A stretch of 64,000 nucleotides of DNA, taken from Candidatus Parcubacteria bacterium. GTDB lineage: Bacteria; Patescibacteriota; Patescibacteriia; Patescibacteriales; UBA12075. Shown here in pieces: positions 1,640-63,900 of this stretch; positions within the stretch are counted from its first letter, which is position 1, and each line of letters opens with the position of its first letter. A program made the translations under genes and the position numbers. Location of the stretch: positions 195,307-259,306 of the forward strand of contig CAWFCE010000001.1 in the NCBI GenBank assembly GCA_963814275.1, read 5' to 3'. The notes under the pieces are model-generated. The model had not been told where the DNA came from and made no database searches. It saw nothing but the letters and a program-made list of their open reading frames with translations.

Positions 1640-2095
1640 ATGACTTTGACTCCACATACAATCAAACCGGCAACCGGAGCCACCCGGGGACGGAAACGCG
1701 TCGGGCGGGGAAACGCCACCGGCCACGGCACCTATAGCGGCAAGGGACAGAAGGGGCAGAAATCCCGTGCCGGCGTATCCAATCTGAAGCGCCTCGGTAT
1801 GCGCCAGATCTTATTGAAGACTCCGAAAGAGCGCGGATTCAAATCGGACAAACCGAAAAACCAAGTTGTTAATTTGGAATTGCTTAATGAGCACTACGGT
1901 TCCGGAGACACCGTTTCGCCGCAGTCTTTATATAAGAAAGGAATGATCAGCGATACCAATATGCCGGTAAAAATACTCGGCTCGGGGTTGCTTAAGGTAG
2001 GAAAACTGAAATTCAGCAAAGTAAGGGTGAGCGAGTCGGCCAGGACGCAGATCGAGAAGCTGGAGGGTGTAATTAATGCGGATAAAAAGCGATAA
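1640..2095 (+). CDS. rplO: 50S ribosomal protein L15
   Basis: 151 aa. RKRVGRG.ATGHGTYSGKGQKGQK.R motif. Follows S5 after a 9-bp spacer, so no L30 gene is present. Confidence 0.93.
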   Translation: MTLTPHTIKPATGATRGRKRVGRGNATGHGTYSGKGQKGQKSRAGVSNLKRLGMRQILLKTPKERGFKSDKPKNQVVNLELLNEHYGSGDTVSPQSLYKKGMISDTNMPVKILGSGLLKVGKLKFSKVRVSESARTQIEKLEGVINADKKR

Positions 2096-2097
2096 AT

Positions 2098-3372
2098 ATG
2101 GTTTTGGATAAGCTCGAACAAATATGGCGCGCCAAGGACCTGAGGAACAGCATATTGTATGTCCTCGGAATGCTGGTTATTTTCCGGCTGGCCGCCCACA
2201 TCCCCGTACCGGGAGTGAATACCGCGGCTTTGAAGGATTTTTTCTCCGGTAACCAGATCTTGGGGCTTTTGAATATCTTTTCCGGCGGGAGCATGCAGAA
2301 CTTTTCCATCGTCATGATGGGCGTGGGCCCGTATATCACCGCTTCGATCATTTTCCAGCTCTTGGGCATGGTCATGCCGAAACTGGAAGAGATGCAGAAG
2401 GAAGAATCCGGACGGCAAAAGATCAATATGTGGACCCGCTGGCTGACCGTACCGATGGCGGTATTGCAGGCGTTCGGCATGATCACGCTTTTGCGCCGCT
2501 CATCGACCGCTATCCTGACGGATGTATCCGGACTGCAGATCGCCGGCATGATCCTGGTCATATCGGCCGGTACCGTATTCCTGATGTGGATTGGGGAGCT
2601 CATTACCGAGAAAAATGTCGGCAACGGCATCTCGCTTTTGATATTCGCCGGCATCGTGTCCGGCTTGCCGCAGGCCATCCAGCAGGTGATCGTCACCTTC
2701 GACCAGTCACAACTTTTCCTGATACTCGGCTTCGTATTGGTGGCGATCGTCACCGTTATCGGTGTGGTATACATTACCGAAGCCCAGCGTAATATTCCCG
2801 TCCAATATGCCAAACAAGTGCGCGGAAACCGCATGTACGGGGGAACCAGCACCCACCTGCCGCTTCGCGTCAATATGGCCGGCGTGATCCCGATCATTTT
2901 CGCCATTTCGGTCGTTTTGTTCCCGTCGATGATCGCGCAGTTTTTCGTGCAGGCCCGTTCGGCCTGGATCGCGTCCGCGGCGGAATGGGTGATCCGGCTG
3001 TTCAATAACCAGATCTTCTACGGGGTTTCCTACTTCGTCCTGGTATTCGCTTTCACATATTTCTATACTGAGGTCATCTTCCATCCGGACCAGATCGCGG
3101 AGAACCTGCAGAAGCAGGGCGGCTTCATCCCGGGCATCCGTCCGGGCAAGCATACGAGCCAGTACCTGGCGAACACGACCCACAAGATCATCTTCGTCGG
3201 CGCGTTGTTCCTGGGCTTGATCGCCATCCTGCCGCTGATCCTGCGCGCAGTGACCAACACCCGCGCCCTGGCCCTGGGAGGCACTTCGCTCCTTATCGTA
3301 GTGGCGGTGGTTATCGAGACGGTAAAGCAGATCGAATCCCAGCTCACCATGCGGGAGTATGAGGGCATGTAA
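2098..3372 (+). CDS. secY: preprotein translocase subunit SecY
   Basis: 424 aa polytopic membrane protein. IPVPG.N, MGVGPYITASII.QLL and GISLLIFAGIV motifs. Operon position after rplO. Confidence 0.95.
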   Translation: MVLDKLEQIWRAKDLRNSILYVLGMLVIFRLAAHIPVPGVNTAALKDFFSGNQILGLLNIFSGGSMQNFSIVMMGVGPYITASIIFQLLGMVMPKLEEMQKEESGRQKINMWTRWLTVPMAVLQAFGMITLLRRSSTAILTDVSGLQIAGMILVISAGTVFLMWIGELITEKNVGNGISLLIFAGIVSGLPQAIQQVIVTFDQSQLFLILGFVLVAIVTVIGVVYITEAQRNIPVQYAKQVRGNRMYGGTSTHLPLRVNMAGVIPIIFAISVVLFPSMIAQFFVQARSAWIASAAEWVIRLFNNQIFYGVSYFVLVFAFTYFYTEVIFHPDQIAENLQKQGGFIPGIRPGKHTSQYLANTTHKIIFVGALFLGLIAILPLILRAVTNTRALALGGTSLLIVVAVVIETVKQIESQLTMREYEGM

Positions 3373-3841: not shown

Positions 3842-4072
3842 TATTGGGATGAAAGTGTAGCGGGTAAATCCTTAAAAATTACAAATTACAAGCACCAAAT
3901 TCCAAATAAATCCCAAATTCAAAATTTCAAATTCAAAACCCTGATTACGCGAATATCGGCTTTAAAGAGTGTTTTTAATTTTGGATTTGTGATTTTGAAT
4001 TTATTTGGAATTTAGAATTTGGTGCTTGGAATTTATTAACAATAGTGCTCTCATTTCATTCCGATATTAACC
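3836..4072. repeat. long imperfect palindromic element, copy 1 (ccaaat/atttgg word family)
   Basis: Inner inverted repeats caagcaccaaattccaaataaat (3889-3911) and atttatttggaa[tttagaa]tttggtgcttgg (3999-4029) flank an 87-bp core. The outer arms also pair imperfectly. Confidence 0.85.
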
Positions 4073-4370
4073 GGTATTTTATATATATTTCTATTTATAC
4101 TTAACGCCTTTTCAGGCAAGTATGATTGGATAATGTAAAATTATATAAATAAATTTACTTCGCCTAACACCACGATAAGCGGCTTGGTATTTTGTCAGAG
4201 ACCTCGTGCGAATTTTGAAAATGATTATTGATTATAACAAGGAATTTCAAAAACGTCGCTTTATCGGTGTAAGTTGTACAATATCTAGCTCTTTAAAATA
4301 AAAAATTTTTGAAGGATTTGACATTGAAGCCGTTATTTATTGAACATTTTGAAAGAAAAAGGAGGATGCA

Positions 4371-8642: not shown

Positions 8643-8673
8643 CAGATAACAGATAGCAGAAAACAGATAACAG
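8641..8673. repeat. gataacag word repeat (half hairpin)
   Basis: aacagataacagatagcagaaaacagataacag starts at the permease stop. A short inverse partner atatctgttgtctg lies at 9161-9174, on the other side of ORF 8719-9144. Confidence 0.6.
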
Positions 8674-9212: not shown

Positions 9213-9378
9213 AATTCCAAGCACCAAATAACAAATTCCAAATAAATTAGAAATTACAAATTCAAAATTTCAAAAAAATATCACAATATTATCGGATATT
9301 TTGAAACAATCTCAGTCTTGAATTTGGTATTTTTAATTTGATATTTATTTGGAATTTGGTGCTTGGAATTTGGAATTT
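9213..9378. repeat. palindromic element, copy 3 (ccaaat/atttgg family, divergent core)
   Basis: ccaagcaccaaata[acaa]attccaaataaat ... atttatttggaatttggtgcttgg. Same inverted repeats as copies 1 and 2 but a different interior. Confidence 0.75.
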
Positions 9379-9436
9379 AATTGATACAAATCTCGAATTA
9401 AAATTCGATTAAATAATAAGTAAATTTTTATAAAAT

Positions 9437-10700: not shown

Positions 10701-10792
10701 AATAATAAGACATAAGTAAATAAGTAATAAGCGCGTAGCTAAGGCTATTAAAAATTGAAAAGGCTTATTGCTTATGTCTTATTACTTATTAC
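10701..10792. repeat. ataagt/acttat word hairpin
   Basis: aataataagacataagtaaataagtaataagc ... gcttattgcttatgtcttattacttattac form an inverted repeat. Confidence 0.7.
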
Positions 10793-10876
10793 TATTTTGA
10801 AATTATCACGCGGATGAGGATAGTGTCAGAGTAATTATCACTAAACGAATAAATCCCATATTATACCCAAAATATT

Positions 10877-13411: not shown

Positions 13412-14128
13412 ATGCAGAAAACATTCATCACTGACGTTATCGTCTTGAAACGGGTGCCTTTCCGGGAACGCGACAGCCGCGTTATCGTCTATAGTGAAGA
13501 CCAGGGGCTGATGGTCCTGATAGCGCGCGGTACCCGAGATCTCGGTTCGAAGATGGCCGGCCACCTGGAACCGCTGACACGGACCAGAATAATGGTGGTC
13601 AAGGGCAAGCGTTTCGACTATATCGGCAGCGCCGTCAACCTGTCTGCTTGGCCGGGTATTAAAAGCAATTTCGAAAAAACAGCGGCGGTCGGCAAGGCGA
13701 TAGCATTTTTTCTCCGTTTTATCAAAGAAGGAGTTAGCGACGAGATTTTGTTTGCCTGGCTGATCAAATATTTCGATTCCCTCGAGAATATGGCCGCAGA
13801 GGCGCTGGATCCATCCCTGCCGGCCAGTTTGGTTATTTTGAAAATATTATCCCGCTTGGGCTATAAGCCGGATCTCGGACATTGCGCGGTCTGCCGCCGG
13901 CCGGTGGAATCAGCCGCATATTATTTCGATCCCGGCCAGGGCGGACTGGTTTGCCCGGCACATAAAAAGGGCGGACAAAATACGGCATATCTTTCAATAG
14001 ATACGATAAATTTGCTAAAATCAGCAATAAATAACGATATTTGCACTTTTACAAAAATTTCGTCAACCAAAAAAACCGCCCAAGAAGCGATCAAGGTGAT
14101 CGCGATATATATGGATTACATCCAGTAA
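13412..14128 (+). CDS. recO: DNA repair protein RecO
   Basis: 238 aa. OB-fold N-terminus (..VLKR.PFRE.D..V.) and the zinc motif C.VC....(n)..LVCP.H. Confidence 0.85.
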   Translation: MQKTFITDVIVLKRVPFRERDSRVIVYSEDQGLMVLIARGTRDLGSKMAGHLEPLTRTRIMVVKGKRFDYIGSAVNLSAWPGIKSNFEKTAAVGKAIAFFLRFIKEGVSDEILFAWLIKYFDSLENMAAEALDPSLPASLVILKILSRLGYKPDLGHCAVCRRPVESAAYYFDPGQGGLVCPAHKKGGQNTAYLSIDTINLLKSAINNDICTFTKISSTKKTAQEAIKVIAIYMDYIQ

Positions 14129-15231: not shown

Positions 15232-17406
15232 ATGGATAAAACTGAAGTGTATTTGAAACAGGAGCTTTGGGTAAAAAATGAAGCCGGTGAAATCTTGATC
15301 AACCCTTGCCATATCAAGGTGGTCGGATCGAATACCATACCGGAGTACCGTGAATTTCGGAAAAAATGTTCATTTTCCCCCTGTGTTGTATCCTTTTTCT
15401 GCAGTTATATTTCCGAAAAGAAGTTGAAGATAAACTCTCTGCGTCTTAGGGAGAGGTGCCTGCGCTGCGCGATGTGGAAGATGATCAACGACGAAGAAGG
15501 GCAAGGAAGAGTGGCCCGGGATATCGCCGAGCTCTATGGAGAAAGGGAACGGCAGTGGAAGAATACCCTGGGTATGATAGAAGTAAGCAACGGCAATGGC
15601 GAGCCGATCTTCAGCTGCAAATCCAATAGGAAAAAGCCGGTTGATGACGGCCATCCGAACGGCTTGACTGACGGCCAAGCCTTGGATTTGTTGCAACTAT
15701 CGGACAAAGCTTCAAAAAGGAAAAAAGATGAATTTTGGCAGAAATTCAAAGCCGGGAAGGAGAAAAAAATGGAATTCGTACAGATCATCAGGTACGCGGC
15801 AGTTTATCTGAAAATAAACGGGATAAACCTGTTGACGATCTCTTTCCACAAGCTGGGATCGGCGATGAACGGGTATCCTACGGCATGTTTCGCCAGATTC
15901 AGGGATCTCGCGATTTGGATCAAATGTCCATGTCGTGAGGTATTTTGCCAGCCGGTTGCCGAATTTTACGGCAACAAAGCAAAGCATAATTGCTTGCATT
16001 GCTGGGTTTTCCACAATCGTGCGTCGCCGCTTGTTGCTGAATGCGCGGAAATATTGAAAGCCTTATTCGCTAACGGGCGCCTCGAATTTGAATTGAAAAA
16101 GGGTGAATTTATAAACCTGCAGACAGACAAAGCGGCTATCCCCGTCTATCAATTCGATTTGGAGCGGGAAGAGCCGGAGATTTTGGCTGAAGGCGATTTT
16201 TCCGCCCCTGATCTGGCACCCGTCAAAGAATTCATAAAATGTTATTTCGCGCCCAAACCGGCAGCGGCACTCCGGAACGAAAACAGCGACCAATCGCGTC
16301 CCGCCGGCAGCAAGGGCATCCGGGCGGGACAGATTGCCAAAATGGAACCGGATTCAGGCGGTGATAATGAAAAACCGGGCGATGAAAACATTACCGCCAA
16401 GACAGGAGAGGAAGAAGATATGACCGTTAATAAAAAAATTGGAAAGACCGGTGAAGTGAAAAAGGGAAGGAGGCACGCGTATTATCTGGTGTTTCCGGAC
16501 AAGAGCACAGAATTGTTGCCGGAGGCGAAAAATCTGGGACAAGCGGCGACAACGCTGCTCGAAAGAGAAAAACAGGATAGCATCAGCTTCCTGCTCTATA
16601 GCGAATGCGATAACGGGAAAAAGAAGACTTTCACCCGCAAGGAAATCGTCGCTGCGTACGCGCTTGATCCGGATATCAAACGCAAGTTTGGCAAAAACAA
16701 GAAAGAATCCTGGATCGATTTCCGTCCCGAAGGGCGTGTCGGCCGCGTAAAAAAGACCAGGCTGTCCCAAGTGGAAGCGATTGGCCGATCCCTGGCCGAT
16801 GAACTGGCAGTAATTGTCGAGGCCTGGTGGATCACCTATAATCCGACAACTGAGAAGCGGATCGGCAGTTTTGTTCCGAGGAGTCAGCCGGCGGCGCGGG
16901 AAGCGGAAGCTATGGCCGTATCTCCGGTTGAAAACGGGAATGAAACGGGAAACGATACCAGCATCGTGGATGCGGACAAACCGCCCGTCGAAGCGGAGAC
17001 AGTGGCCGCCGCCCCGCCCGCCGGTGAAAACAAAAACGCCGTTGTATACCAACCGCCGGCAGATGACAGGCCTCTGGGGTTATCACCTATCCGGGCGACG
17101 TGCAAATCCATCGGCGAGCTGATCGCCGAAATCCTCAACAACGGACATAACGGCGGCCATGACGCGAGGGAATTCTGCAATATCCGGTCTCATTCGGGCC
17201 GGGCGATCAATCTCTGTTATGTTGATCAGGAAAAAGCCCGGGAGTCCGTAGAGGCGCTGGCCGCGCTTTCACCGAACTCGCTACGCCTGGAAGTGGTAAA
17301 TCTCACGCCCAGTATGCAAAAAGATCTTATCAACAGCTTGGTGGCCATGGTGGGTGTATTGACGGACCAGCTGAATGCGGCCAAACAGCCATTGCTTCCG
17401 GAGTAG
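15232..17406 (+). CDS. hypothetical large Cys-rich protein (orphan)
   Basis: 724-aa ORF. Strong SD aaggaggtga at 15218-15227. CxxC and CPCREVFC..(14)..CLHC clusters in the N-terminal half. Acidic linker. No recognisable catalytic motif. Confidence 0.65.
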   Translation: MDKTEVYLKQELWVKNEAGEILINPCHIKVVGSNTIPEYREFRKKCSFSPCVVSFFCSYISEKKLKINSLRLRERCLRCAMWKMINDEEGQGRVARDIAELYGERERQWKNTLGMIEVSNGNGEPIFSCKSNRKKPVDDGHPNGLTDGQALDLLQLSDKASKRKKDEFWQKFKAGKEKKMEFVQIIRYAAVYLKINGINLLTISFHKLGSAMNGYPTACFARFRDLAIWIKCPCREVFCQPVAEFYGNKAKHNCLHCWVFHNRASPLVAECAEILKALFANGRLEFELKKGEFINLQTDKAAIPVYQFDLEREEPEILAEGDFSAPDLAPVKEFIKCYFAPKPAAALRNENSDQSRPAGSKGIRAGQIAKMEPDSGGDNEKPGDENITAKTGEEEDMTVNKKIGKTGEVKKGRRHAYYLVFPDKSTELLPEAKNLGQAATTLLEREKQDSISFLLYSECDNGKKKTFTRKEIVAAYALDPDIKRKFGKNKKESWIDFRPEGRVGRVKKTRLSQVEAIGRSLADELAVIVEAWWITYNPTTEKRIGSFVPRSQPAAREAEAMAVSPVENGNETGNDTSIVDADKPPVEAETVAAAPPAGENKNAVVYQPPADDRPLGLSPIRATCKSIGELIAEILNNGHNGGHDAREFCNIRSHSGRAINLCYVDQEKARESVEALAALSPNSLRLEVVNLTPSMQKDLINSLVAMVGVLTDQLNAAKQPLLPE

Positions 17407-17437
17407 TTTGATATTTTCATTTTGTTTTTCAAACCCT

Positions 17438-17474
17438 AAAGGGGCAGCCGCATTAGCCGCGGCCGCCCCTTTAT
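17438..17474 (+). terminator. intrinsic terminator after ORF 15232-17406
   Basis: aaaggggcagccgc-atta-gccgcggccgccccttt GC-rich stem followed by tttatt. Confidence 0.6.
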
Positions 17475-17476
17475 TC

Positions 17477-17505
17477 TTGACTATTTTTCGTAATTTCTTT
17501 ATAAT
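17477..17505 (+). promoter_or_regulatory. sigma70-type promoter for the T-box leader
   Basis: TTGACT (17477-17482), 17-nt spacer, TATAAT (17500-17505). Confidence 0.55.
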
Positions 17506-17511
17506 AGATTT

Positions 17512-17785
17512 ACAACTTATAAAGCTGTTTGATCCCGGCTGACACCGGGGAATCCTGATTATCGATGATTATCAGGGCGGCGCAGGAAGAAATCCCGGTA
17601 ATTCGGGAGAGTAGAACCTGCCGGGTGCGCCCGTAATAGCGTTAAAAGCGGCCCTGTCGAAGCGTAGTGCGTTACGCTCGAAGTATTGGGAATAAGGGTG
17701 GTACCGCGGATGTTAAACCGAGTAAAGGTAAAACGTTCGTCCCTGTATATCATGATTTGTGGTATATGGAGACGGACGGTTTTTG
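17512..17785 (+). promoter_or_regulatory. T-box riboswitch leader (tRNA-sensing transcription attenuator) upstream of aspS
   Basis: Conserved T-box sequence aataaGGGTGGTACCGCGg at 17691-17709. AGAGTA element at 17606-17611. Terminator stem 17734-17778 plus TTTTT at 17780-17784. Located 5' of an aminoacyl-tRNA synthetase gene. Confidence 0.75.
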
Positions 17786-17787
17786 TT

Positions 17788-17870
17788 AGATAACAGATAG
17801 CAGATAACAGACGACAGTAAGATGCCTTAGATTCGTCTGTTATCTGTTATCTTCTATCTGTTGTCTTTTT
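17788..17870. repeat. gataacag word hairpin between the T-box terminator and aspS
   Basis: agataacagatagcagataacagacga ... tcgtctgttatctgttatcttctatctgttgtct, followed by ttttt. Confidence 0.75.
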
Positions 17871-17936
17871 AATTTATAATAATTATTTTAATAATAATTT
17901 TCCCGTTTTGGAATAACCGGAAAATTAAATGCAAAC

Positions 17937-19739
17937 ATGCTAAGAACACATACATGCGGCGAATTACGGAAAGGGGACGTGGATAAAAAGGCCACCCTCT
18001 GCGGCTGGGTCCATCGGCGGCGCGACCATGGGGGTATCATTTTCATCGACCTTAGGGACCGCTACGGCCTGACCCAGATCAAATTCGATCCCAAGTTCGA
18101 TGCCGCGGCGCATAAGGAAGCCGACCAGCTGAGAAGTGAATGGGTAATCCGGGTGGAAGGCAAGGTAATTCCCCGGCCGGACGATATGGTCAACCCCAAG
18201 CTTGCCACCGGCGAGATCGAAGTGCAGATAAATAAGCTGGAAATCTTGAGCCAGTCGAAGACTCCGCCCTTCGAGCTGGAAGAGGAGAAGAATATCGAGG
18301 TTAAAGAGAATTTGCGGCTTAAATACCGCTTTGTCGATCTGCGCCGACCGGAGCTGCAGAAATTGCTCGACACTAAGGACAAATTCATACAGTATTGCCG
18401 CGATTACATGCGGAAATTGGGTTTTACCGAAGTGCAGACCCCGATCCTGGCCAGTTCCAGCCCGGAAGGGGCGCGCGATTTCCTGATCCCGTCCAGGCTC
18501 CACCCGGGCAAGTTCTACGCTTTGCCGCAGGCGCCGCAAATGTTCAAACAGCTTCTGATGGTCGGCGGTCTGGACAAATATTTCCAGATTGCGCCCTGTT
18601 TTCGCGATGAAGATACGCGTATGGACCGGCATTACGGCGAATTTTACCAGCTTGATATGGAAATGAGCTTTATCGAACAGGACGACATTTTATCGGCTAT
18701 GGAACCGCTCATGAAAGAGCTGACGGAAAAATTCAGCGGAAAAAAACTTGTCGGCGTGGAAAAAGACGGCCGTTTTCCGCAAATCCCATATCGCGAAGCC
18801 CTGGAAAAATACGGCACGGATAAGCCCGATCTGCGTTTTGGTCTGCCGATCAAACCGGTCACTGAGCTGGTAAAGGGATGCGGCTTCAAAGTGTTTGCCG
18901 ATATGGCGGCCCAGGAGGGGCATGCCGTCCACGCGCTTAAAGTCGACGGCGGAGCCAAGTTTACCCGCAAGGAGATAGACGAATTCACCGTTCTGGCGCA
19001 AAGCAAAGGCGCCAAAGGGCTGGCCTATATCGTATTGCGGGAAGACGGGAAAAACTATAAGCTTCAATCGCCGATCGTAAAATTTTTGGGAGACGATTTG
19101 GCCGGCAAGATCGTTGAGGCGTTGGACGCCAAAACCGGCGATATCATATTCTTCGGAGCCGACAAATGGCGGATAGTCTGTGACACGCTGGGCGCGGTAC
19201 GCAATGCCTGTGCGGAAAAATTGGGCCTGAAAGACAATAAAAAGGCAGCTTGGTGCTGGATAGTGGATTTCCCGATGTATGAATTCTCGGAGATCGAGGA
19301 TGGCCGGATCGATTTCGGCCACAACCCGTTCTCTATGCCTCAGGGCGGCTTGAGCGCCCTGGACGAGAAAGATCCGCTCGATATCAAAGCTTATCAATTC
19401 GATCTGGTAATCAACGGTTTTGAGGCCAGTTCCGGGGCGATTAGGAACCATGAGCCCGCGATAATGTACAAGGCTTTCGCCATCGCCGGTTACAGCCGTG
19501 ATGAGGTGGACGCCAAATTCGGCGCGATGATCAGGGCTTTCGAATACGGCGCGCCGCCGCACGGCGGCAACGCGCCCGGACTGGACCGCATCCTGATGGC
19601 CCTTTTAGACCTTGATTCGATCCGTGATATATACGCCTTCCCCAAAGACGGCGCCGGCCGCGACGTAATGATGGAGAGTCCGCATGAGGCGAGCGGGAAG
19701 CAATTGAAGGATCTGGGTATCAAGCTTCTTGGATCGTGA
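17937..19739 (+). CDS. aspS: aspartate--tRNA ligase (bacterial type with GAD insertion)
   Basis: 600 aa. N-terminal OB domain (LCGWVHRRRDHGG.IFIDLRD..G). Class II motifs FRDED.R.DR and GLDR at the C-terminus. Confidence 0.95.
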   Translation: MLRTHTCGELRKGDVDKKATLCGWVHRRRDHGGIIFIDLRDRYGLTQIKFDPKFDAAAHKEADQLRSEWVIRVEGKVIPRPDDMVNPKLATGEIEVQINKLEILSQSKTPPFELEEEKNIEVKENLRLKYRFVDLRRPELQKLLDTKDKFIQYCRDYMRKLGFTEVQTPILASSSPEGARDFLIPSRLHPGKFYALPQAPQMFKQLLMVGGLDKYFQIAPCFRDEDTRMDRHYGEFYQLDMEMSFIEQDDILSAMEPLMKELTEKFSGKKLVGVEKDGRFPQIPYREALEKYGTDKPDLRFGLPIKPVTELVKGCGFKVFADMAAQEGHAVHALKVDGGAKFTRKEIDEFTVLAQSKGAKGLAYIVLREDGKNYKLQSPIVKFLGDDLAGKIVEALDAKTGDIIFFGADKWRIVCDTLGAVRNACAEKLGLKDNKKAAWCWIVDFPMYEFSEIEDGRIDFGHNPFSMPQGGLSALDEKDPLDIKAYQFDLVINGFEASSGAIRNHEPAIMYKAFAIAGYSRDEVDAKFGAMIRAFEYGAPPHGGNAPGLDRILMALLDLDSIRDIYAFPKDGAGRDVMMESPHEASGKQLKDLGIKLLGS

Positions 19740-19830
19740 ATCCCCTCGGCTCGCTTTGCCCGCTCGGGGCAGGCGTGGATCGGAGATCGTGAATCGTGGA
19801 TCGGAGGTCATGGATTGGAGATGGGAAAGA
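19735..19830. repeat. gatcgtgaatc word repeat plus GC-rich hairpin
   Basis: ggatcgtgaatcccctcggctcgctttgcccgctcggggcaggcgtggatcggagatcgtgaatcgtggatcggagg starts inside the last aspS codons. Confidence 0.5.
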
Positions 19831-19884
19831 GTTTTTTAAGCCAGGCTTTATAACTTTTAACTTTATTACTTTATAACTTAATAA

Positions 19885-21300
19885 ATGGATATTTTGCCGA
19901 TAAAAAAATTATACCGCGAGAGTGATAAGTATTTAGGCAAAGAGATTCGAGTCGAGGGATGGGTCAGAACCGTCCGTTCATCCAATGTTTTTGGGTTCAT
20001 GGAAGTGAATGACGGCAGTTTTTTCCGCGGGATCCAGGTGGTGATGGATAAATCACTGGCCGGTTATGAGGAGTTGGCCAAAACCCCGATCGGTTCAGCC
20101 GTCCGGGTGGAGGGAAAACTCGTCCAGTCCGAAGGGGCCGGCCAGGATTTCGAGATAAAAGCCGCGATAATAGAAGTGGTAAGCGAAGCCGCGGCTGATT
20201 ACCCCCTACAGAAGAAACGCCACAGTTTCGAGTTCCTGCGCACCATCGCCCATTTGCGCGGCCGCTCCAATACCTTTTCCGCGGTTTTCCGGGTCCGCTC
20301 GACCCTGTCTTACGCTATCCATAAGTTTTTTCAGGAAGAGAAAGGATTTGTCTATGTGCACGCGCCAATCATCACGACCAGCGATTGCGAAGGGGCAGGG
20401 GAGATGTTCACGGTAACTTCTTTTCCGGTCGACGAACCGGTCGATCGCTTGCCGGTGAAATCAACTTCCGCGGGAAAAGTACTGGATTTCGACAGGGATT
20501 TCTTCGGCAAGAAAGCCGGGCTTACGGTAAGCGGCCAGCTCAATGCCGAAGCGATGTGCCACGCCTTTAAGGGCGTCTATACGTTCGGGCCGACTTTTCG
20601 GGCGGAGAATTCCAATACCAGCCGGCACGCGGCCGAATTCTGGATGATGGAGCCGGAGGTCGCCTTTGCCGACCTGGATGACAATATGGATCTGGCCGAG
20701 TCTATGATCAAATATCTGATCGCCTATGTCCGCCGGGAGTTGCCGGAAGAGATGGAATTTTTTAACAAATTCATCGGCCAGGGCCTGCTGGAACGCCTGG
20801 ATAACTTGGAGAAAAGCGATTTCGAACGGATTACCTATAGTCAGGCGATCGGAATTCTCGAAAAAGCGGAAAAGAAGTTCCAATTTCCGGTCAAATGGGG
20901 AATAGACCTGCAAAGCGAACACGAACGCTATATTTGCGAGGAGGTATATAAAAAGCCGGTATTCGTGACCGATTACCCCAGGGAGATCAAAGCCTTTTAT
21001 ATGCGCCTGAATGACGACGGCAAGACCGTGGCGGCGATGGACCTGCTGGCGCCGGGCATCGGCGAGATCATCGGCGGATCCCAGCGCGAGGAGCGGCTGG
21101 ATGTCCTGGAGAAGCGGATGGCGGAGGCGGGTTTGCCCCTGGATAATTATTGGTGGTACCGCCAGATCAGGAAATACGGCGGGGTGAAGCATGCCGGCTT
21201 CGGACTCGGGTTCGAACGCTTCCTCATGTATCTGACCGGAATGGAGAACATCCGCGACGTGATCCCGTTCCCGCGAGTGCCCAAGAGCGCGGAGTTTTGA
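19885..21300 (+). CDS. asnS: asparagine--tRNA ligase
   Basis: 471 aa. GWVRTVR....F.EVNDGS N-terminus. FRAE.S.T.RH..EFWM.E class II motif 2. C-terminal GFGLGFER and FPR.P. Confidence 0.93.
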
Positions 21301-26716: not shown

Positions 26717-26718
26717 AT

Positions 26719-26824
26719 ATAATACGAATGCTACGAATTACGTTCCGAATGCCCCGAATGCTATATTACGAATTCGGATATATTCGCGGCATTCGGAACG
26801 TAATTCGTAGCATTCGGATTATAA
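26719..26824. repeat. cgaatg/cattcg word hairpin (empty copy)
   Basis: Arms 26721-26752 and 26789-26820 pair over 32 bp with 1 mismatch. The element ends 5 nt before the scpA ATG. Confidence 0.85.
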
Positions 26825-27542: not shown

Positions 27543-27644
27543 TAATACGAATGCCCCGAATGGCGCTCCGAATGCCGCAAATATATCCGAATTCGTAATA
27601 TAGCATTCGGAGCATTCGGAACGTCATTCATAGATTCGGATTAT
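27543..27644. repeat. cgaatg/cattcg word hairpin (empty copy)
   Basis: It starts ataatacgaatg and ends attcggattat, like the 26719 copy. Imperfect arms. It ends 12 nt before the scpB ATG. Confidence 0.75.
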
Positions 27645-27655
27645 ATACATACCAT

Positions 27656-28240
27656 ATGTTGAAGTCAAAAATAGAAGCCTTATTGTTCATTTCCGCCAAA
27701 CCGATGGCAGTCAGCCAATTGGCCGATTTGTTAAAAGTAAAAAAAGATGAATTGGTAAAGGCCGGCGATGAGCTGGTGGAGGAATACCGGCAAAGCCAAA
27801 AGGGCGTTCAGATAATAAAAAACGGCAATAAATTCCAGATGGTCAGCTCGCCCGAACACGCCAAGCTGGTGCAGGAATTCATCAAAGACGAAACGACCGG
27901 CGAATTGTCGCGGCCCAGCCTGGAGGCGCTCACTATCATCGCATACCGCGGACCGATCTCAAAGCTGGATCTTGACCGGATCAGGGGCGTGAATTGCTCA
28001 CTGATCATCCGCAATTTGCTCTTGCGCGGCTTAGTCGAGGCTAAACACGACAAAACCAAGCAGGAGACGTATTATACCGTAACTTTCGACTTTATCCGCT
28101 TCCTGGGTATAAATGATATAAAAGAACTGCCCGACTTCGAGCGCCTGCATAAGGATGATACCATTGACAGGATTTTATCCGATAATGAATCTTCTGCCGA
28201 TAAAGCGGAAAATATAAATAATAACCAATCGGAGGATTAA
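27656..28240 (+). CDS. scpB: segregation and condensation protein B
   Basis: 194 aa. IEALLF.S..P. and SLEALTIIAY.GPI....L..IRGV motifs. Adjacent to scpA. Confidence 0.88.
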   Translation: MLKSKIEALLFISAKPMAVSQLADLLKVKKDELVKAGDELVEEYRQSQKGVQIIKNGNKFQMVSSPEHAKLVQEFIKDETTGELSRPSLEALTIIAYRGPISKLDLDRIRGVNCSLIIRNLLLRGLVEAKHDKTKQETYYTVTFDFIRFLGINDIKELPDFERLHKDDTIDRILSDNESSADKAENINNNQSED

Positions 28241-28326
28241 TTTATAATTTATAAGTTGTAATTTGTAAACAGTTACGGATTAAGGTATTTTAAAGTTTAT
28301 AAATTATAAATTACAAATTATAAATT
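28241..28326. repeat. tataaat/tacaaat word hairpin
   Basis: tttataatttataagttgtaatttgtaaac ... gtttataaattataaattacaaattataaatt form imperfect inverted arms. Confidence 0.6.
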
Positions 28327-30218: not shown

Positions 30219-30305
30219 AGAATCCGAATGCCCCGAATGGCGAATCCGAATGCCCCGAATGGCGAATCCGAATGCCCCGAATGGCGAATCCGAATGCTCC
30301 GAATG
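30219..30305. repeat. tandem 24-bp repeat gaatccgaatgccccgaatggc (about 3.5 copies), left arm of a split cgaatg element
   Basis: Direct reading. The ORF-track start at 30214 merely translates this array. Confidence 0.9.
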
Positions 30306-32726: not shown

Positions 32727-32799
32727 GCCGACGTAGCTCAGCTGGTAGAGCAACTCCATGGTAAGGAGTAGGTCTGGGGTTCGAATCCCCACGTCGGCT
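32727..32799 (+). tRNA. tRNA-Thr (anticodon GGU)
   Basis: Cloverleaf by hand: acceptor GCCGACG/CGTCGGC, D stem GCTC/GAGC, anticodon stem ACTCC/GGAGT with loop ATGGTAA, T arm TGGGG-TTCGAAT-CCCCA. CCA is not encoded. Confidence 0.9.
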
Positions 32800-32804
32800 C
32801 TTTC

Positions 32805-32897
32805 AAATTTCGAATGACGAATGTCGAATGACAAATATATTTTTCTATATAATATTTTACGATAATTTGTCATTCGACATTCGTAATTCGTCATTTT
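32805..32897. repeat. cgaatg-family hairpin filling the spacer between the two tRNAs
   Basis: aaatttcgaatgacgaatgtcgaatgacaaat ... atttgtcattcgacattcgtaattcgtcatttt. The inner 20 bp pair perfectly. Confidence 0.85.
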
Positions 32898-32900
32898 CGG

Positions 32901-32984
32901 GGGTCGATACTCAAGCGGTCAACGAGGGCAGACTGTAAATCTGCTGGCCTTGCGCCTACGTAGGTTCGAGTCCTACTCGGCCCA
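32901..32984 (+). tRNA. tRNA-Tyr (anticodon GUA), long variable arm
   Basis: Acceptor GGGTCGA/TCGGCCC (one G-U pair), anticodon stem GCAGA/TCTGC with loop CTGTAAA, long variable arm, T arm GTAGG-TTCGAGT-CCTAC, discriminator A. Confidence 0.88.
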
Positions 32985-33027
32985 CAATACAAAAACAGCG
33001 CCACAAGCGCTGTTTTTGTATTGTGGG
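32981..33027. repeat. perfect 21-bp hairpin overlapping the 3' acceptor end of tRNA-Tyr
   Basis: cccacaatacaaaaacagcgc-cacaa-gcgctgtttttgtattgtggg. No T-run follows. Confidence 0.85.
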
Positions 33028-46714: not shown

Positions 46715-46757
46715 GGCGAATGGCGAATGGCGAATGTCGAATGGCGAATGGCGAATT
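46715..46757. repeat. tandem heptamer ggcgaat (about 6 copies)
   Basis: gaggcgaatggcgaatggcgaatgtcgaatggcgaatggcgaat lies directly after the stop codon. No inverted partner nearby. Confidence 0.85.
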
Positions 46758-48008: not shown

Positions 48009-48869
48009 ATGCCGGAATTGCCGGAAGTGGAAACCGTGGTGCGCGATCTGCGCCCCAAGGTTTTACGAATCGCCATAAAAAACATAGAAATACTGCTGCC
48101 CAGGATCGTCAAAAACAGACCGGCTGAATTCAAAAAAAATCTGATAAATAACGAGTTCAGCGGGATCGAGCGGATCGGCAAGCTCATGATATTCCGGCTG
48201 CAGAACGGCGGCAAAGCCATGCTGGTTCATCTCAAGATGACCGGCCAGCTGGTATATTGCCAGGGGGAGAAAATTGTCGCCGGTGGCCATGATGACGGAA
48301 CCGACCCCACTTGCCTGCCGGACAAATGGACCAGGGTGGTTTTTCATTTCGCTGACGGCGGTCGATTGTGTTTTAACGATATGCGGACATTCGGTTATTT
48401 ATCGCTGGCGGATACGGACAAATTAAGTTTGATCAGAAGGAGGTACGGCCCGGATCCGTTGACCAGTAAATTCACATTGGCCGATTTTAAACGGACAATT
48501 AAGGACAGGCATACCAGTATAAAAGCTTTGCTTTTGAATCAGGAAATTATTGCCGGGCTTGGCAATATCTATGTCGATGAGATCCTATACCGGGCCGGAG
48601 TCAGGCCGGCGAGAAAGGCCAGTGGCCTAAAAAACTTCGAAATAGAGGCAATTTATGGAGCGGTAAAACCCGTGTTGCAGAGAGCGATCAAGAACCGCGG
48701 GACGACATTCAATAATTACGTGGACGGCAACGGCCAGAGGGGCAATTTTGTCCGGCTGCTCAAAGTTTACGGACGGCAGGGGAAATCATGCAAGCGCTGC
48801 GGAACAGCCATTAAAAAGGCCAAGGTGGCCGGGCGGGGGACGCATTATTGCCCGGTATGTCAATCTTAG
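48009..48869 (+). CDS. mutM: formamidopyrimidine-DNA glycosylase
   Basis: N-terminal MPELPEVE. C-terminal zinf finger C.RCG......(n)..YCP.CQ. Confidence 0.93.
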   Translation: MPELPEVETVVRDLRPKVLRIAIKNIEILLPRIVKNRPAEFKKNLINNEFSGIERIGKLMIFRLQNGGKAMLVHLKMTGQLVYCQGEKIVAGGHDDGTDPTCLPDKWTRVVFHFADGGRLCFNDMRTFGYLSLADTDKLSLIRRRYGPDPLTSKFTLADFKRTIKDRHTSIKALLLNQEIIAGLGNIYVDEILYRAGVRPARKASGLKNFEIEAIYGAVKPVLQRAIKNRGTTFNNYVDGNGQRGNFVRLLKVYGRQGKSCKRCGTAIKKAKVAGRGTHYCPVCQS

Positions 48870-48950
48870 GCAATAGGGTTGTAGGCGGTAGGCAATAGGG
48901 TTGTGGGCGGTAGGCAATAGGGTTGTGGGCGGTAGGGTTGTAGGGGTTGC
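48868..48950. repeat. tandem ggcaatagggttgt(a/g)ggcggta repeat (about 3 copies)
   Basis: Direct reading. It starts at the mutM stop codon. Confidence 0.85.
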
Positions 48951-54810: not shown

Positions 54811-55039
54811 GTTAATATTGCCATGAATTGAGAGCGGCTGAATATATAAAATTTCAAATTCCAAGCACCAAATTCCAAATAAATTCAAAATCACAAATCT
54901 AAAATACAAAACACTTTGTTAAAGCCGATATTCGTGTAATCAGGGTTTTGAATTTGAAATTTTGAATTTGGGATTTATTTGGAATTTGGTGCTTGGAATT
55001 TATTAACAATAGTGCTCTCATTTCATTCCAGTATTAACC
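54811..55039. repeat. long imperfect palindromic element, copy 2 (core inverted relative to copy 1)
   Basis: IRs ccaagcaccaaattccaaataaat (54861-54884) and atttatttggaatttggtgcttgg (54973-54996). The core 54885-54972 equals the reverse complement of 3912-3998 apart from a few mismatches and one indel. The right flank is the same as in copy 1. Confidence 0.9.
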
Positions 55040-55336
55040 CCTAAGGTTTAATATTGTAATAAAAGTGAAACGCTATAATATAATACATTTGGAAATTGCT
55101 TATTTGGTGTCTGGAAATTAGTTTTTACGCACTTCGAAACCAGCCAATTTCTAACTTCCACATAACCAGTTTCCCATTAAGATTTAGGGTATATTCCGGT
55201 GTTTCACTTTTATATCAATATCAACCCTTGAGTATTTAAGTCTTTATGAGATGGGGTAGTGAATAAGATTTGAAATTTTCCCCATAAGACTATCCGAGAA
55301 TCAATTTTTTATATATAGCATAAAAACCTTATACAC

Positions 55337-60290: not shown

Positions 60291-60390
60291 ACGCGAACGT
60301 GCAAATTAAGTTACAAATTTACGGATTGCAAATACGGATAAATTATTTGTAATTTGTAAATTTGTAGTAAGATTTGCGCATTCGCGCAAA
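60291..60390. repeat. tacaaat/acggat word hairpin between the MFP and RND genes
   Basis: acgcgaacgtgcaaattaagttacaaatttac ... gtaaatttgtagtaagatttgcgcattcgcg form imperfect inverted arms ending ~10 nt before the RND ATG. Confidence 0.65.
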
Positions 60391-63400: not shown

Positions 63401-63841
63401 AAAAAGGCCATGATCGTGCTGGTCGCCATCCCCTTGGCCCTGATCGGCGTCTTTTTCGGAATGGCAATTGCCCGCATCAATCTGAGCTTTCCCGGTTTGA
63501 TCGGCATTCTCGCCCTTTTCGGGATCGTGGTCAAAAATGCCATCATCCTGATCGACAAGATCAATCTGAACCTGAAATACAATATATCGTTCGAAAATGC
63601 GATCATCGATGCCGGCAAATCCCGTTTCGAAGCGATTATCATCACTTCGATCACTACTATCTTGGGTATTATCCCGATCACATTATCGAACGCTTTATGG
63701 CGCGCTTTGGGCGGGGCGATCATCTTTGGCTTGATGCTGTCGTCCTTTTTGACCTTGTTTATCGTGCCGATCTTGTATTATATGTTTTTCAAGAAGAGTG
63801 AAGGGACTGAGGACACGCAGCGTGTCGCACATAGCACGTAA
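60401..63841 (+). CDS. RND efflux transporter permease (AcrB/HAE1-like)
   Basis: About 1146 aa, 12 TM with two large extracytoplasmic loops and the internal duplication typical of RND pumps. Start moved to the ATG at 60401 (MAETSQ). Confidence 0.92.
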   Translation: MAETSQKQQSHRSADTLYLAKLTFNERLRKTWLNFFVSRFRVVLLLIMVITGWGLYSFFQLPRESNPEVKIPIAVVITAYPGVGPSDIEELVTKKLETGIASLKNIKQVTSYSYNSVSSITVEFEASANLDDSIRKLRDEVNSLKNDLPDDASEPVVNEISFDDTPILTVALTGPFDGFQLRQAADDIKDELEKLPDIREVVVSGGDEREFRISYDPNKLTFYNITPDQANAAVKATNLVIPAGNFDGREFTYPVRADARFFDAAKLADIPLIHTDKGAIVYLKDVADVAETAIKRTVYSRFSTEGSIPQAAATLSVIKKTGGNIVNTVQNAYGILDEQIKLQPEGAGYVTITDFAKDINDEFTRLTHDFILTLLLVFSILFLAVGLKEALVAGLAVPMVFFVTFGVMDLSGITLNFLSIFSLILSLGLLVDDAIVVVSATKQYMATGKFTPEEAVLLVLNDFKVVLTTTTLTTVWAFLPLLLATGIIGSFIKSIPITVSVTLISSLLIALMVNHPLAAVLERVRFTKKVFFPLLLLMFGASYFALTFNNIYGYLAAGVFFFLILFLIRWYLRKGRPLLAANAQLAAKERKDDNSIKEKLRKQSTDSTDRLGRWLHGVVSLNRILPRYDRFLCGILINKRRRRFIIGLTFGLFLAAVSLPAIGIIPIEFFPASDENLIFVNLRASTGLKLDRTDLIVKQVEEKLLRYPEIKNFSTVVGRSSSGSDIGPTSSSGNLASLTVNLVEPGKRNITSYDLAEKMRLDFADIQDAEVTVESLQGGPPSGSAFEARVVGDDLQVLDRIANELKPLLTAIPGVVNADISLKEAPAEYTFELMPDKMELYSLNAAYVGSVLRTAIAGTDVSTVILGGKEIKVRAEFKPESIPDLAAIQNIQILNLAKQPVFIKDVAKVELAPSVESITRIDQKRAVILSAGVTGETRANVVLSEFQKKLASEYTLPAGYSIVYGGENEQNVESVISIIKAMVLAALLIISTLIIQFNSFKKAMIVLVAIPLALIGVFFGMAIARINLSFPGLIGILALFGIVVKNAIILIDKINLNLKYNISFENAIIDAGKSRFEAIIITSITTILGIIPITLSNALWRALGGAIIFGLMLSSFLTLFIVPILYYMFFKKSEGTEDTQRVAHST

Positions 63842-63900
63842 CACATAGCACATAGCACGTAACACATAGCACGTAGCACATAGCACGTAGCACATAGCAT
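63826..63900. repeat. tandem cacatagcacgt(a/aa) repeat (about 5 copies)
   Basis: Direct reading. The last RND codons and the stop lie inside the first repeat unit. Confidence 0.85.

Follow-up and report, generated by a model that had tools for sequence, protein, structure and literature searches.

A probable transcriptional T-box riboswitch with an ultrashort Stem I in front of aspS-asnS in a Parcubacteria-type bacterium

The stretch of DNA considered here (contig CAWFCE010000001.1; the whole stretch analysed, 64 kb long, is called the window) carries, one behind the other, the genes for aspartate-tRNA ligase (aspS) and asparagine-tRNA ligase (asnS), preceded by a sigma-70-type promoter and a leader of about 270 nucleotides (nt). 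This arrangement had been described in a first-pass annotation of the sequence, and it is borne out by the equivalog-level NCBIfam matches of both genes and by the consensus fit of the promoter. Taking into account its sequence and structure elements, its homologues, the covariation of its helices and the agreement between specifier and gene, the leader is best read as a functional T-box riboswitch, an attenuator of aspS-asnS transcription that would respond to uncharged tRNA-Asp, a reading to which we give a probability of about 0.8. The features of the locus are listed below, where RF00230 is the Rfam T-box model and R1 a covariance model described further on.

17441-17475, plus strand: probable intrinsic terminator of the upstream gene, GGGGCAGCCGC...GCGGCCGCCCC, then UUUAUU; read from the sequence
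17477-17505, plus strand: sigma-70-type promoter, TTGACT-17 nt-TATAAT, with 11/12 consensus matches
17524-17532, plus strand: 5' strand (GCU, GUUU, GA) of a K-turn-like element closing Stem I; putative geometry, from reading the sequences
17533-17550, plus strand: ultrashort Stem I, UCCCGG-CUGACA-CCGGGG; from folding and from alignment with the actinobacterial hairpin
17553-17577, plus strand: H2, a 25-nt hairpin, UCCUGAUUAUC-GAU-GAUUAUCAGGG, in the linker between Stem I and Stem II; from folding
17582-17621, plus strand: Stem II, with base helix GCAGG/CCUGC; from the RF00230 and R1 alignments
17622-17642, plus strand: Stem IIA (CGGG-UGCG-CCCG, 17622-17633) and IIB pseudoknot with the F-box-like CCCGUAAUAGCG; from the RF00230 F-box alignment and covariation
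17652-17690, plus strand: Stem III, flanked by purines (AAAAGCGG on the 5' side, AAUAA on the 3' side); from the RF00230 alignment and a fold of 17650-17748
17695-17744, plus strand: antiterminator, with helix A1 (AGGG/CCCU), bulge UGGUACC and helix A2 (GCGGAUGUU/AACGUUCGU) with an apical insertion; fold of -16.8 kcal/mol, RF00230 and R1
17734-17784, plus strand: intrinsic terminator, made of a hairpin of 19 bp (17734-17778) that has a single C/A mismatch and of GUUUUU behind it; fold of -23.6 kcal/mol
17788-17871, plus strand: long 'gataacag' hairpin (79 nt, 17788-17866) followed by five U; -40 kcal/mol, z = -8 against shuffles
17937-19739, plus strand: aspS, bacterial-type aspartate-tRNA ligase of 600 aa with a GAD domain; NF001750, 786 bits, equivalog-level NCBIfam
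19885-21300, plus strand: asnS, asparagine-tRNA ligase of 471 aa; NF003037, 660 bits, equivalog-level NCBIfam

The T-box sequence GGGUGGUACCGCG occupies 17696-17708, inside the range 17691-17709 in which it had first been recognised, and contains a 7-nt bulge, UGGUACC (17699-17705), in the context AGGG-UGGUACC-GCGGA...UUCGU-CCCU. The UGGU of this bulge would be available for pairing with the 3' NCCA end of a tRNA. The strong terminator previously placed at 17734-17785 is found again as a hairpin with five U at 17780-17784, and its 5' strand is at the same time the 3' strand of the antiterminator, so that both helices, each of which forms in the folds, compete for 17734-17744 and are mutually exclusive. 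Since the terminator is the more stable of the two, the layout is the classical one, the weaker helix depending on a ligand for its stabilisation. The terminators aligned from 11 leaders of the candidate phyla radiation (CPR) comprise 20 pairs, of which 12 show compensatory changes, and end in a U-run in every case; where the structures were wholly captured, the terminators fold at -18 to -39 kcal/mol and the antiterminators at -6 to -16 kcal/mol. Helices A1 and A2 also covary in an alignment of 24 leaders. A minimum-free-energy fold of the whole leader, in which the T-box was paired with upstream sequence, was left out of the model.

Upstream of this switch lies a compact decoding module. The codon GAC (17541-17543) and the conserved 3' purine A17544 sit in the 6-nt terminal loop of Stem I, whose pairs show compensatory changes in 6/6 cases and which matches the actinobacterial hairpin UCCGG-CCAUCA-CCGGG (AUC+A) column for column. 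The canonical long Stem I, with its K-turn, specifier internal loop, AG bulge and distal loop or tRNA-elbow platform, is not present, and an 18-nt hairpin stands alone in its place; the initial impression of an atypical Stem I was therefore right, and the RF00230 alignment deletes 86 Stem I positions. At the base of Stem I, GCU(G) of the K-turn-like element would pair with (C)GGC at 17578-17581, with the tandem purine pairs G31.A52 and A32.A51. The 5' flank AAAGCCGUUUGA is conserved in 7/11 CPR leaders, and the 3-bp closing stem covaries (GCC/GGC, ACC/GGU, GCU/GGC, UCG/CGA); AAAGCCGUUUGA together with a 3' GA-GGC would be a K-turn-like closing element. In Stem II, the S-turn strands AAGAA (17587-17591) and AGUAGAA (17610-17616) flank an apical hairpin (17593-17608), both the base and the apical helix covary, and the motif of 5 bp, AAGAA, hairpin, (A)GUAGAA and 5 bp is present in all CPR and actinobacterial leaders. 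The AGAGTA element reported earlier belongs to this S-turn strand and is no specifier; it lies at 17608-17613 and not, 2 nt off, at 17606-17611. In the IIB pseudoknot, G27-C28-G29 pairs with C40-G41-U42 (17627-17629 with 17640-17642), and 3/3 pairs are changed on both sides among the leaders: GCG/CGU in the window, UUAGC/GCUAA in L191, GUU/AAC in L084 and L138 (metagenomic leaders treated below), and GGG/CCC in Actinobacteria.

The identity of the leader as a T-box is not evident from Rfam alone. At the gathering threshold, a scan of the window returned two tRNAs only and no T-box, and a permissive RF00230 scan of 17400-17960 gave a match at 17556-17747 with E = 8.8e-5 and a score of 29.6 bits, against a gathering threshold of 93 bits. 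This alignment spans Stem II, F-box, Stem III and antiterminator, with 18 nt in place of 86 Stem I positions, and the score is as low as it is because the long Stem I is absent. Other matches of the permissive scan, to mir-999, mir-577, RefA9 and further miRNA or sRNA families, are artefacts of long hairpins. The covariance model R1 was built from 39 non-redundant actinobacterial ileS leaders with ultrashort Stem I alone; on the 64-kb window it gives a single match, 17567-17745, at 65.1 bits (E about 8e-17), a figure to be read with the fact that the training leaders were retrieved by a pattern derived from the window, so that about 25 of 159 model positions match by construction. It is this model, together with 13 homologues, that settles the T-box identity left below threshold by the Rfam scan.

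R1 aligned AUCA inside H2 and so misplaced Stem I of the window, and the MAFFT alignments A1 and A2 (not the helices so named) misplaced Stem I as well, in both cases because of linker insertions. Covariation was therefore assessed on alignment A4, with 24 leaders (6 CPR-type and 18 actinobacterial), from which the linker insertions of the window and of L191 were removed by hand; the structure considered comprised Stem I, the base and apex of Stem II, IIA, IIB, A1 and A2; in Stem III the alignment is unreliable. In A4, 91.1% of the cells are paired, a share that falls to 72% once the columns are shuffled and to 38-56% with the partners shifted by 1-3 columns, and 22/32 pairs, pseudoknot included, are changed on both sides.

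The host belongs to the CPR, as its CPR-like genome had suggested: its closest AspRS matches, at 72-78% identity, all carry the name of Patescibacteria, Parcubacteria, Moranbacteria or Falkowbacteria. Its closest genome relative, a Parcubacteria metagenome-assembled genome (MAG) with 75% AspRS identity (L001), has a homologous leader, scored at 49 bits by RF00230 and 56.5 bits by R1, with the hairpin UUUUGG-UAAACA-CCAAAA and with CAGG-AAGAA-hairpin-UAGAA-CCUG in common with the window. Among the distinct closest relatives found via AspRS, R1 matches 7/10, with 44-88 bits: L201, L202, L205, L207, L209, L210 and L212. Four metagenomic leaders of low GC content, L125, L084, L138 and L191, reach 62-81 bits; no match of R1 was found in the more distant AspRS loci L002-L080. 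The Patescibacteria aspS leaders homologous to that of the window number 13, with R1 scores of 44-88 bits and RF00230 scores of 41-61 bits, all under 93. The AspRS of L138 groups with Lloydbacteria and Liptonbacteria proteins, and therefore every terminator-type member so far comes from Patescibacteria. In the public record of L209, a 157-aa gene (1918-2391, minus strand) is called opposite the T-box leader and overlaps it; this gene is probably spurious, and the leader itself is thus unannotated.

A scan of metagenomes with the pattern GGAAGAA..AGAACC..GGGUGGNACCGCG gave at least 120 loci. This pattern misses variants such as GGAAAGAA...AGAAUCC (L201, L205), so that its counts are no estimate of prevalence. 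About 75 of the matches listed are high-GC leaders standing before ileS, with UCCGG-CCAUCA-CCGGG 8 nt ahead of GGAAGAA and with no terminator; they correspond to the translational T-box with ultrashort Stem I known from Actinobacteria (PMC7583486).

These leaders bear directly on the specifier. GAC followed by A (17541-17544), the first of two candidates put forward earlier, occupies the same loop columns as AUC+A in the roughly 75 ileS leaders among the matches listed, and is, to judge from these alignments, the correct one, which would read tRNA-Asp. Each of the 14 CPR leaders has GAC or AAC at loop positions 3-5 and a purine behind it: GAC in the window, L201, L205, L209 and L125, and AAC in L001, L191, L202, L207, L210, L212, L138 and L084. 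The genes behind them are aspS of bacterial type or, in L125 and L138, of archaeal or non-discriminating type. The asnS gene directly follows aspS behind 3/5 GAC leaders (window, L201, L125) and behind 0/5 AAC leaders with downstream sequence (L001, L191, L202, L207, L210); L205 and L209 have a GAC leader without an adjacent asnS, so the association is not absolute. The one-base toggle between GAC and AAC appears to follow the choice between direct synthesis of Asn-tRNA, with asnS beside aspS, and a non-discriminating AspRS. This distribution is suggestive of a division in which AAC leaders would tune a non-discriminating AspRS to the charging of tRNA-Asn, and GAC leaders would monitor tRNA-Asp.

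In the bulge, the variable base of UGGN is C in 8 and U in 5 of the 13 Asp/Asn leaders, with nothing else, and U in nearly all Ile leaders among the matches listed. The discriminator base is G73 in bacterial tRNA-Asp and tRNA-Asn and A73 in tRNA-Ile, so that C or U in the former leaders fits G73, and U in the latter fits A73.

An actinobacterial ileS T-box with an ultrashort Stem I was reportedly described by Sherwood, Grundy and Henkin in 2015. This T-box is of class II and translational, and structures from Mycobacterium and Nocardia have been reviewed (PMC7583486); the literature links short Stem I forms to control of translation in this phylum (PMC7583486, PMC11297988). As in the ileS T-box, the specifier of the window leader takes positions 3-5 of a 6-nt terminal loop and is followed by a purine, with nearly identical flanks (GAUCCGG-CCAUCA-CCGGGGAG in ileS leaders, GAUCCCGG-CUGACA-CCGGGGAA in the window), and the S-turn AAGAA/AGUAGAA, the IIA/B pseudoknot, the purine-flanked Stem III and the UGGNACC bulge are common to both. 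However, the platform is an intrinsic terminator in the window and a Shine-Dalgarno sequestrator in the ileS T-box, the window-type leaders are those of Asp/Asn, aspS and asnS, and Patescibacteria instead of Ile, ileS and Actinobacteria, and their linker between Stem I and Stem II carries lineage-specific hairpin insertions unlike the ileS form. A Stem I lying 5-10 nt upstream of Stem II, a feature of the class, is kept in relatives (5-6 nt) and broken in the window by the 25-nt H2.

With canonical RF00230 T-boxes (B. subtilis tyrS, glyQS), the window leader shares the promoter-leader-terminator layout, the competition between terminator and antiterminator, the T-box sequence, the F-box, Stem III and the rule of a specifier plus purine; unlike them, it is without the elbow platform of a long Stem I, and the window and its homologues score 30-61 bits against 93. 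In Clostridia, according to the passage of PMC4206432 that cites Saad et al. (2012, J Biol Chem 287:20382), Asn-specific T-boxes control non-discriminating aspS and gatCAB. There, AspRS is controlled by the charging of tRNA-Asn, the same logic as in the AAC-type CPR leaders, although the clostridial T-boxes have a canonical long Stem I and the specifier of the window leader is GAC instead of AAC. This logic is met again in other metagenomic contigs of low to mid GC content, where T-boxes with an AAC specifier and a canonical long Stem I stand before aspS in L146 (311-441) and before gatCAB in L154 (7464-7615); they share with the short forms the Stem II motif and a ...AACA-C..GGAGC context. 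The compared sequences are consistent with an origin of the ultrashort Stem I by deletion of the distal part.

The following course of events may be proposed. Transcription would begin about 7 nt past the -10 box, near 17512; promoters of the form TTGACx-17-TAxxxT are found at an equal distance in L001, L125, L191, L201, L202 and L205. The nascent RNA would fold into a compact decoding module like that of the actinobacterial ileS T-boxes, in which the ultrashort Stem I would show the codon GAC with its purine in the terminal loop, without a distal platform to dock the tRNA elbow, and Stem III with the antiterminator would act as discriminator. A bound tRNA that carries no amino acid would pair through its 3' NCCA with UGGU in the bulge and stabilise the antiterminator, which has -16.8 kcal/mol on its own; otherwise the terminator (-23.6 kcal/mol) would form, and RNA polymerase would stop in vivo at the U-run 17780-17784, the charge of the tRNA being sensed in this way. 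H2 and the 79-nt hairpin would be lineage-typical 7-nt-repeat hairpins inserted at structurally permissive places. In the 145-nt spacer between aspS and asnS neither a promoter-like nor a terminator-like site was found, and asnS is probably co-transcribed with aspS.

Several observations weigh against the proposal of a functional, tRNA-Asp-responsive attenuator. The RF00230 score is far under the gathering threshold. Genes for tRNA-Asp or tRNA-Asn were found neither in the window nor in the about 45 loci searched, and UGGU opposite G73 gives a G.U pair, not a Watson-Crick one. H2 breaks the strand that would complete the K-turn and could alter its geometry, and the hairpin of -40 kcal/mol with five U beyond the terminator could halt the transcripts that read through. 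Finally, transcriptional T-boxes have been held to need an elbow-binding platform for fast capture of the tRNA (PMC7583486), since this capture has to precede the arrival of RNA polymerase at the terminator, and therefore a terminator type without this platform may work poorly or need help.

One alternative concerns the inserted hairpins. H2, which the first-pass annotation had not noticed, holds the 7-mer GAUUAUC twice (GAUUAUC-GAU-GAUUAUC); it is missing from L001, L125, L201, L202, L205 and L207, with a linker of 5-6 nt, and unrelated insertions stand at the same site in L209 (19 nt), L210 (26 nt) and L191 (39 nt). H2 was also tried as the true Stem I and rejected, with no codon in its loop and no counterpart in most homologues. 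The arms of the hairpin 17788-17866 are short tandem arrays of a 7-nt unit (AGAUAAC / UCUGUUA), and one of them has a 27/30 match at 8644-8673. A stable hairpin with a T-run does stand, as claimed before, between the T-box terminator and the ATG of aspS; it is no part of the riboswitch, however, the hairpin being one of a class that looks like a genome-wide feature of the lineage, since the same construction, with other units, recurs at 10 or more further intergenic sites of the window (Tandem Repeats Finder and an inverted-repeat search). It is unlikely that this hairpin and its U-run form a functional second checkpoint for aspS, be it a tandem terminator or a processing or stabilising site. 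Its great stability, the UUUUU behind it and the presence of an unrelated 7-nt-repeat hairpin at the same place in L205 would favour such a role, but it is missing from most homologous leaders (L001, L125, L191, L201 and L202 among them), and its class, found also between tRNA-Thr and tRNA-Tyr, is mostly without a T-run. The simplest reading is that the lineage accumulates 7-nt-repeat hairpins and that the T-box tolerates them at peripheral sites, H2 and the 17788-17866 hairpin being then neutral insertions and not T-box parts.

Another possibility, quite unlikely in our view, is that the leader answers to both tRNA-Asp and tRNA-Asn, GAC pairing perfectly with GUC and through one G.U with GUU, and in this way serves both synthetase genes. 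The apparent co-transcription of aspS and asnS and the swap of GAC and AAC among close relatives would agree with it, as would a bulge, UGGU or UGGC, that suits G73 of both tRNAs alike. PMC2916919 also reports near-cognate T-box induction by tRNA-Asn for the B. cereus lysK leader. However, T-boxes generally require Watson-Crick pairing of the specifier (PMC7778990), and the geometry of the codon-anticodon helix is monitored by the Stem II S-turn (PMC7583486), both of which speak against such a double response.

The leader could also be a decaying remnant of a T-box, with Stem I lost and two hairpins inserted, acting at most as a constitutive terminator or as a plain leader. The Rfam score under threshold, the insertions in the linker and past the terminator, the reduced genomes of CPR bacteria and the presence of the leader in only 1 of about 14 relatives in a species-representative genome set would be understood in this way. 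Decay is nevertheless very unlikely for a leader that 7/10 distinct closest relatives have kept, whose helices covary and whose loop codon is always Asp or Asn before two different types of aspS, all the more so as the same architecture has been proven functional in actinobacterial ileS leaders (PMC7583486).

Control of translation, as in the actinobacterial relatives, is highly improbable: although this type of decoding module has so far been tied to translational control, the alternative helix is a canonical hairpin with a U-run, conserved in all 13 homologous leaders, the switching strand has no Shine-Dalgarno-like sequence, and the helix ends about 150 nt before the ATG of aspS, so that no ribosome-binding site could be sequestered and control of translation initiation is not plausible. 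Scarcely credible, in turn, is the sensing of tRNA-Asn through the second specifier candidate, an AAC directly past AGUAG (at 17615-17617, 2 nt from the 17613-17615 first given), for, in spite of asnS in the operon, the Asn codon and the C-rich stretch next to it, this AAC belongs to AGUAGAACC, the 3' strand of the Stem II S-turn with the base helix, which is invariant in dozens of Ile-specific actinobacterial leaders and whose CC pairs with GG of GGAAGAA (pairs 31-70 and 32-69), and which therefore cannot encode specificity.

Regarding the surroundings of the T-box, the gene upstream (15232-17406) ends before the probable terminator at 17441-17475, which a consensus scan did not list because of one mismatch in its stem and which probably isolates the aspS transcription unit. 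The order ruvX-recO-(variable)-aspS-(asnS)-flavodoxin-NT5C-scpA-scpB is common to the window (13412-14128 to 22543), L201, L205 and L208-L212, and the presence or absence of T-box, asnS and flavodoxin varies in its combinations among Patescibacteria with this conserved order. The MAGs L002, L010, L011, L013, L014 and L017, with AspRS 58-74% identical, bear the titles 'uncultured Bdellovibrionales' or 'Gammaproteobacteria', probably through mislabelling of the bins or as artefacts of taxonomy. Short repeats also make up the spacer between aspS and asnS, with a CGTGAAT-like unit four times (19774-19803) and CTTTATAA five times (19846-19884), the latter reaching the ATG of asnS.

Elsewhere in the window, 7-nt-repeat hairpins lie at 3872-4034, 9225-9383, 10704-10793, 26718-26823, 27558-27629, 28238-28326, 32805-32896, 54849-55001 and 60292-60386; they occupy spacers between co-directional genes, fold at -21 to -63 kcal/mol and are in most cases without a T-run. 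The hairpin at 32805-32896 (arms CGAATGA / ATTCGTC, -34 kcal/mol) takes up the whole interval from tRNA-Thr (32727-32800) to tRNA-Tyr (32901-32985), and if both are co-transcribed it would therefore be part of a tRNA precursor. An element of about 230 nt occurs twice, about 51 kb apart (about 3860-4075 and 54840-55040), as a 7-nt-repeat hairpin with the conserved 3' flank ATTAACAATAGTGCTCTCATTTCATTCC..TATTAACC, and could represent either a mobile element or the gene of a small RNA. In relatives, repeat-built hairpins stand inside the T-box, at the apex of Stem III in L205 (2130-2215) and L212 (2255-2325) and at the apex of Stem II in L210 (2150-2215), and the hairpin of L205 between terminator and ATG, in the same position as that of the window, is made of TTTTCAA/TTGAAAA. 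Direct tandem repeats of longer units are also found at gene ends or in spacers (30220-30305, 48867-48936, 63827-63899 and 46715-46756). Units of 22 nt are present in 3.9 and 3.2 copies that are 97-98% identical, a unit of 21 nt in 3.5 copies, and GGCGAAT six times. On 7-nt-repeat hairpins of CPR genomes, nothing relevant came up in the literature searched.

Although the general logic of the proposed attenuator is ordinary, we class as new the combination of an ultrashort Stem I with a transcription terminator, in a leader specific for Asp/Asn and in a CPR host. In the literature searched, with a coverage that is incomplete and leaves room for an earlier description, no paper links T-boxes with CPR or Patescibacteria. 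It seems fairly probable that Parcubacteria-type CPR bacteria carry an uncatalogued class of T-box, transcription-terminating and without the platform that docks the tRNA elbow, with a specifier that toggles between GAC and AAC. Scores of 30-61 bits against a threshold of 93 mean that Rfam-based pipelines miss the whole class.

If this class exists and is functional, fast co-transcriptional capture of tRNA would need no platform, or these organisms would compensate for its absence, possibly by a slow or pausing RNA polymerase or by a clamp made of Stem II and the pseudoknot. A conserved family of leaders with covarying helices, in which the ultrashort module is coupled to an intrinsic terminator, would then be a natural counter-example to the platform requirement, and the distribution of T-boxes would be extended to the candidate phyla radiation. 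The switch between GAC and AAC among close relatives would, in addition, offer a compact case of riboswitch specificity co-evolving with the route to Asn-tRNA in reduced genomes.

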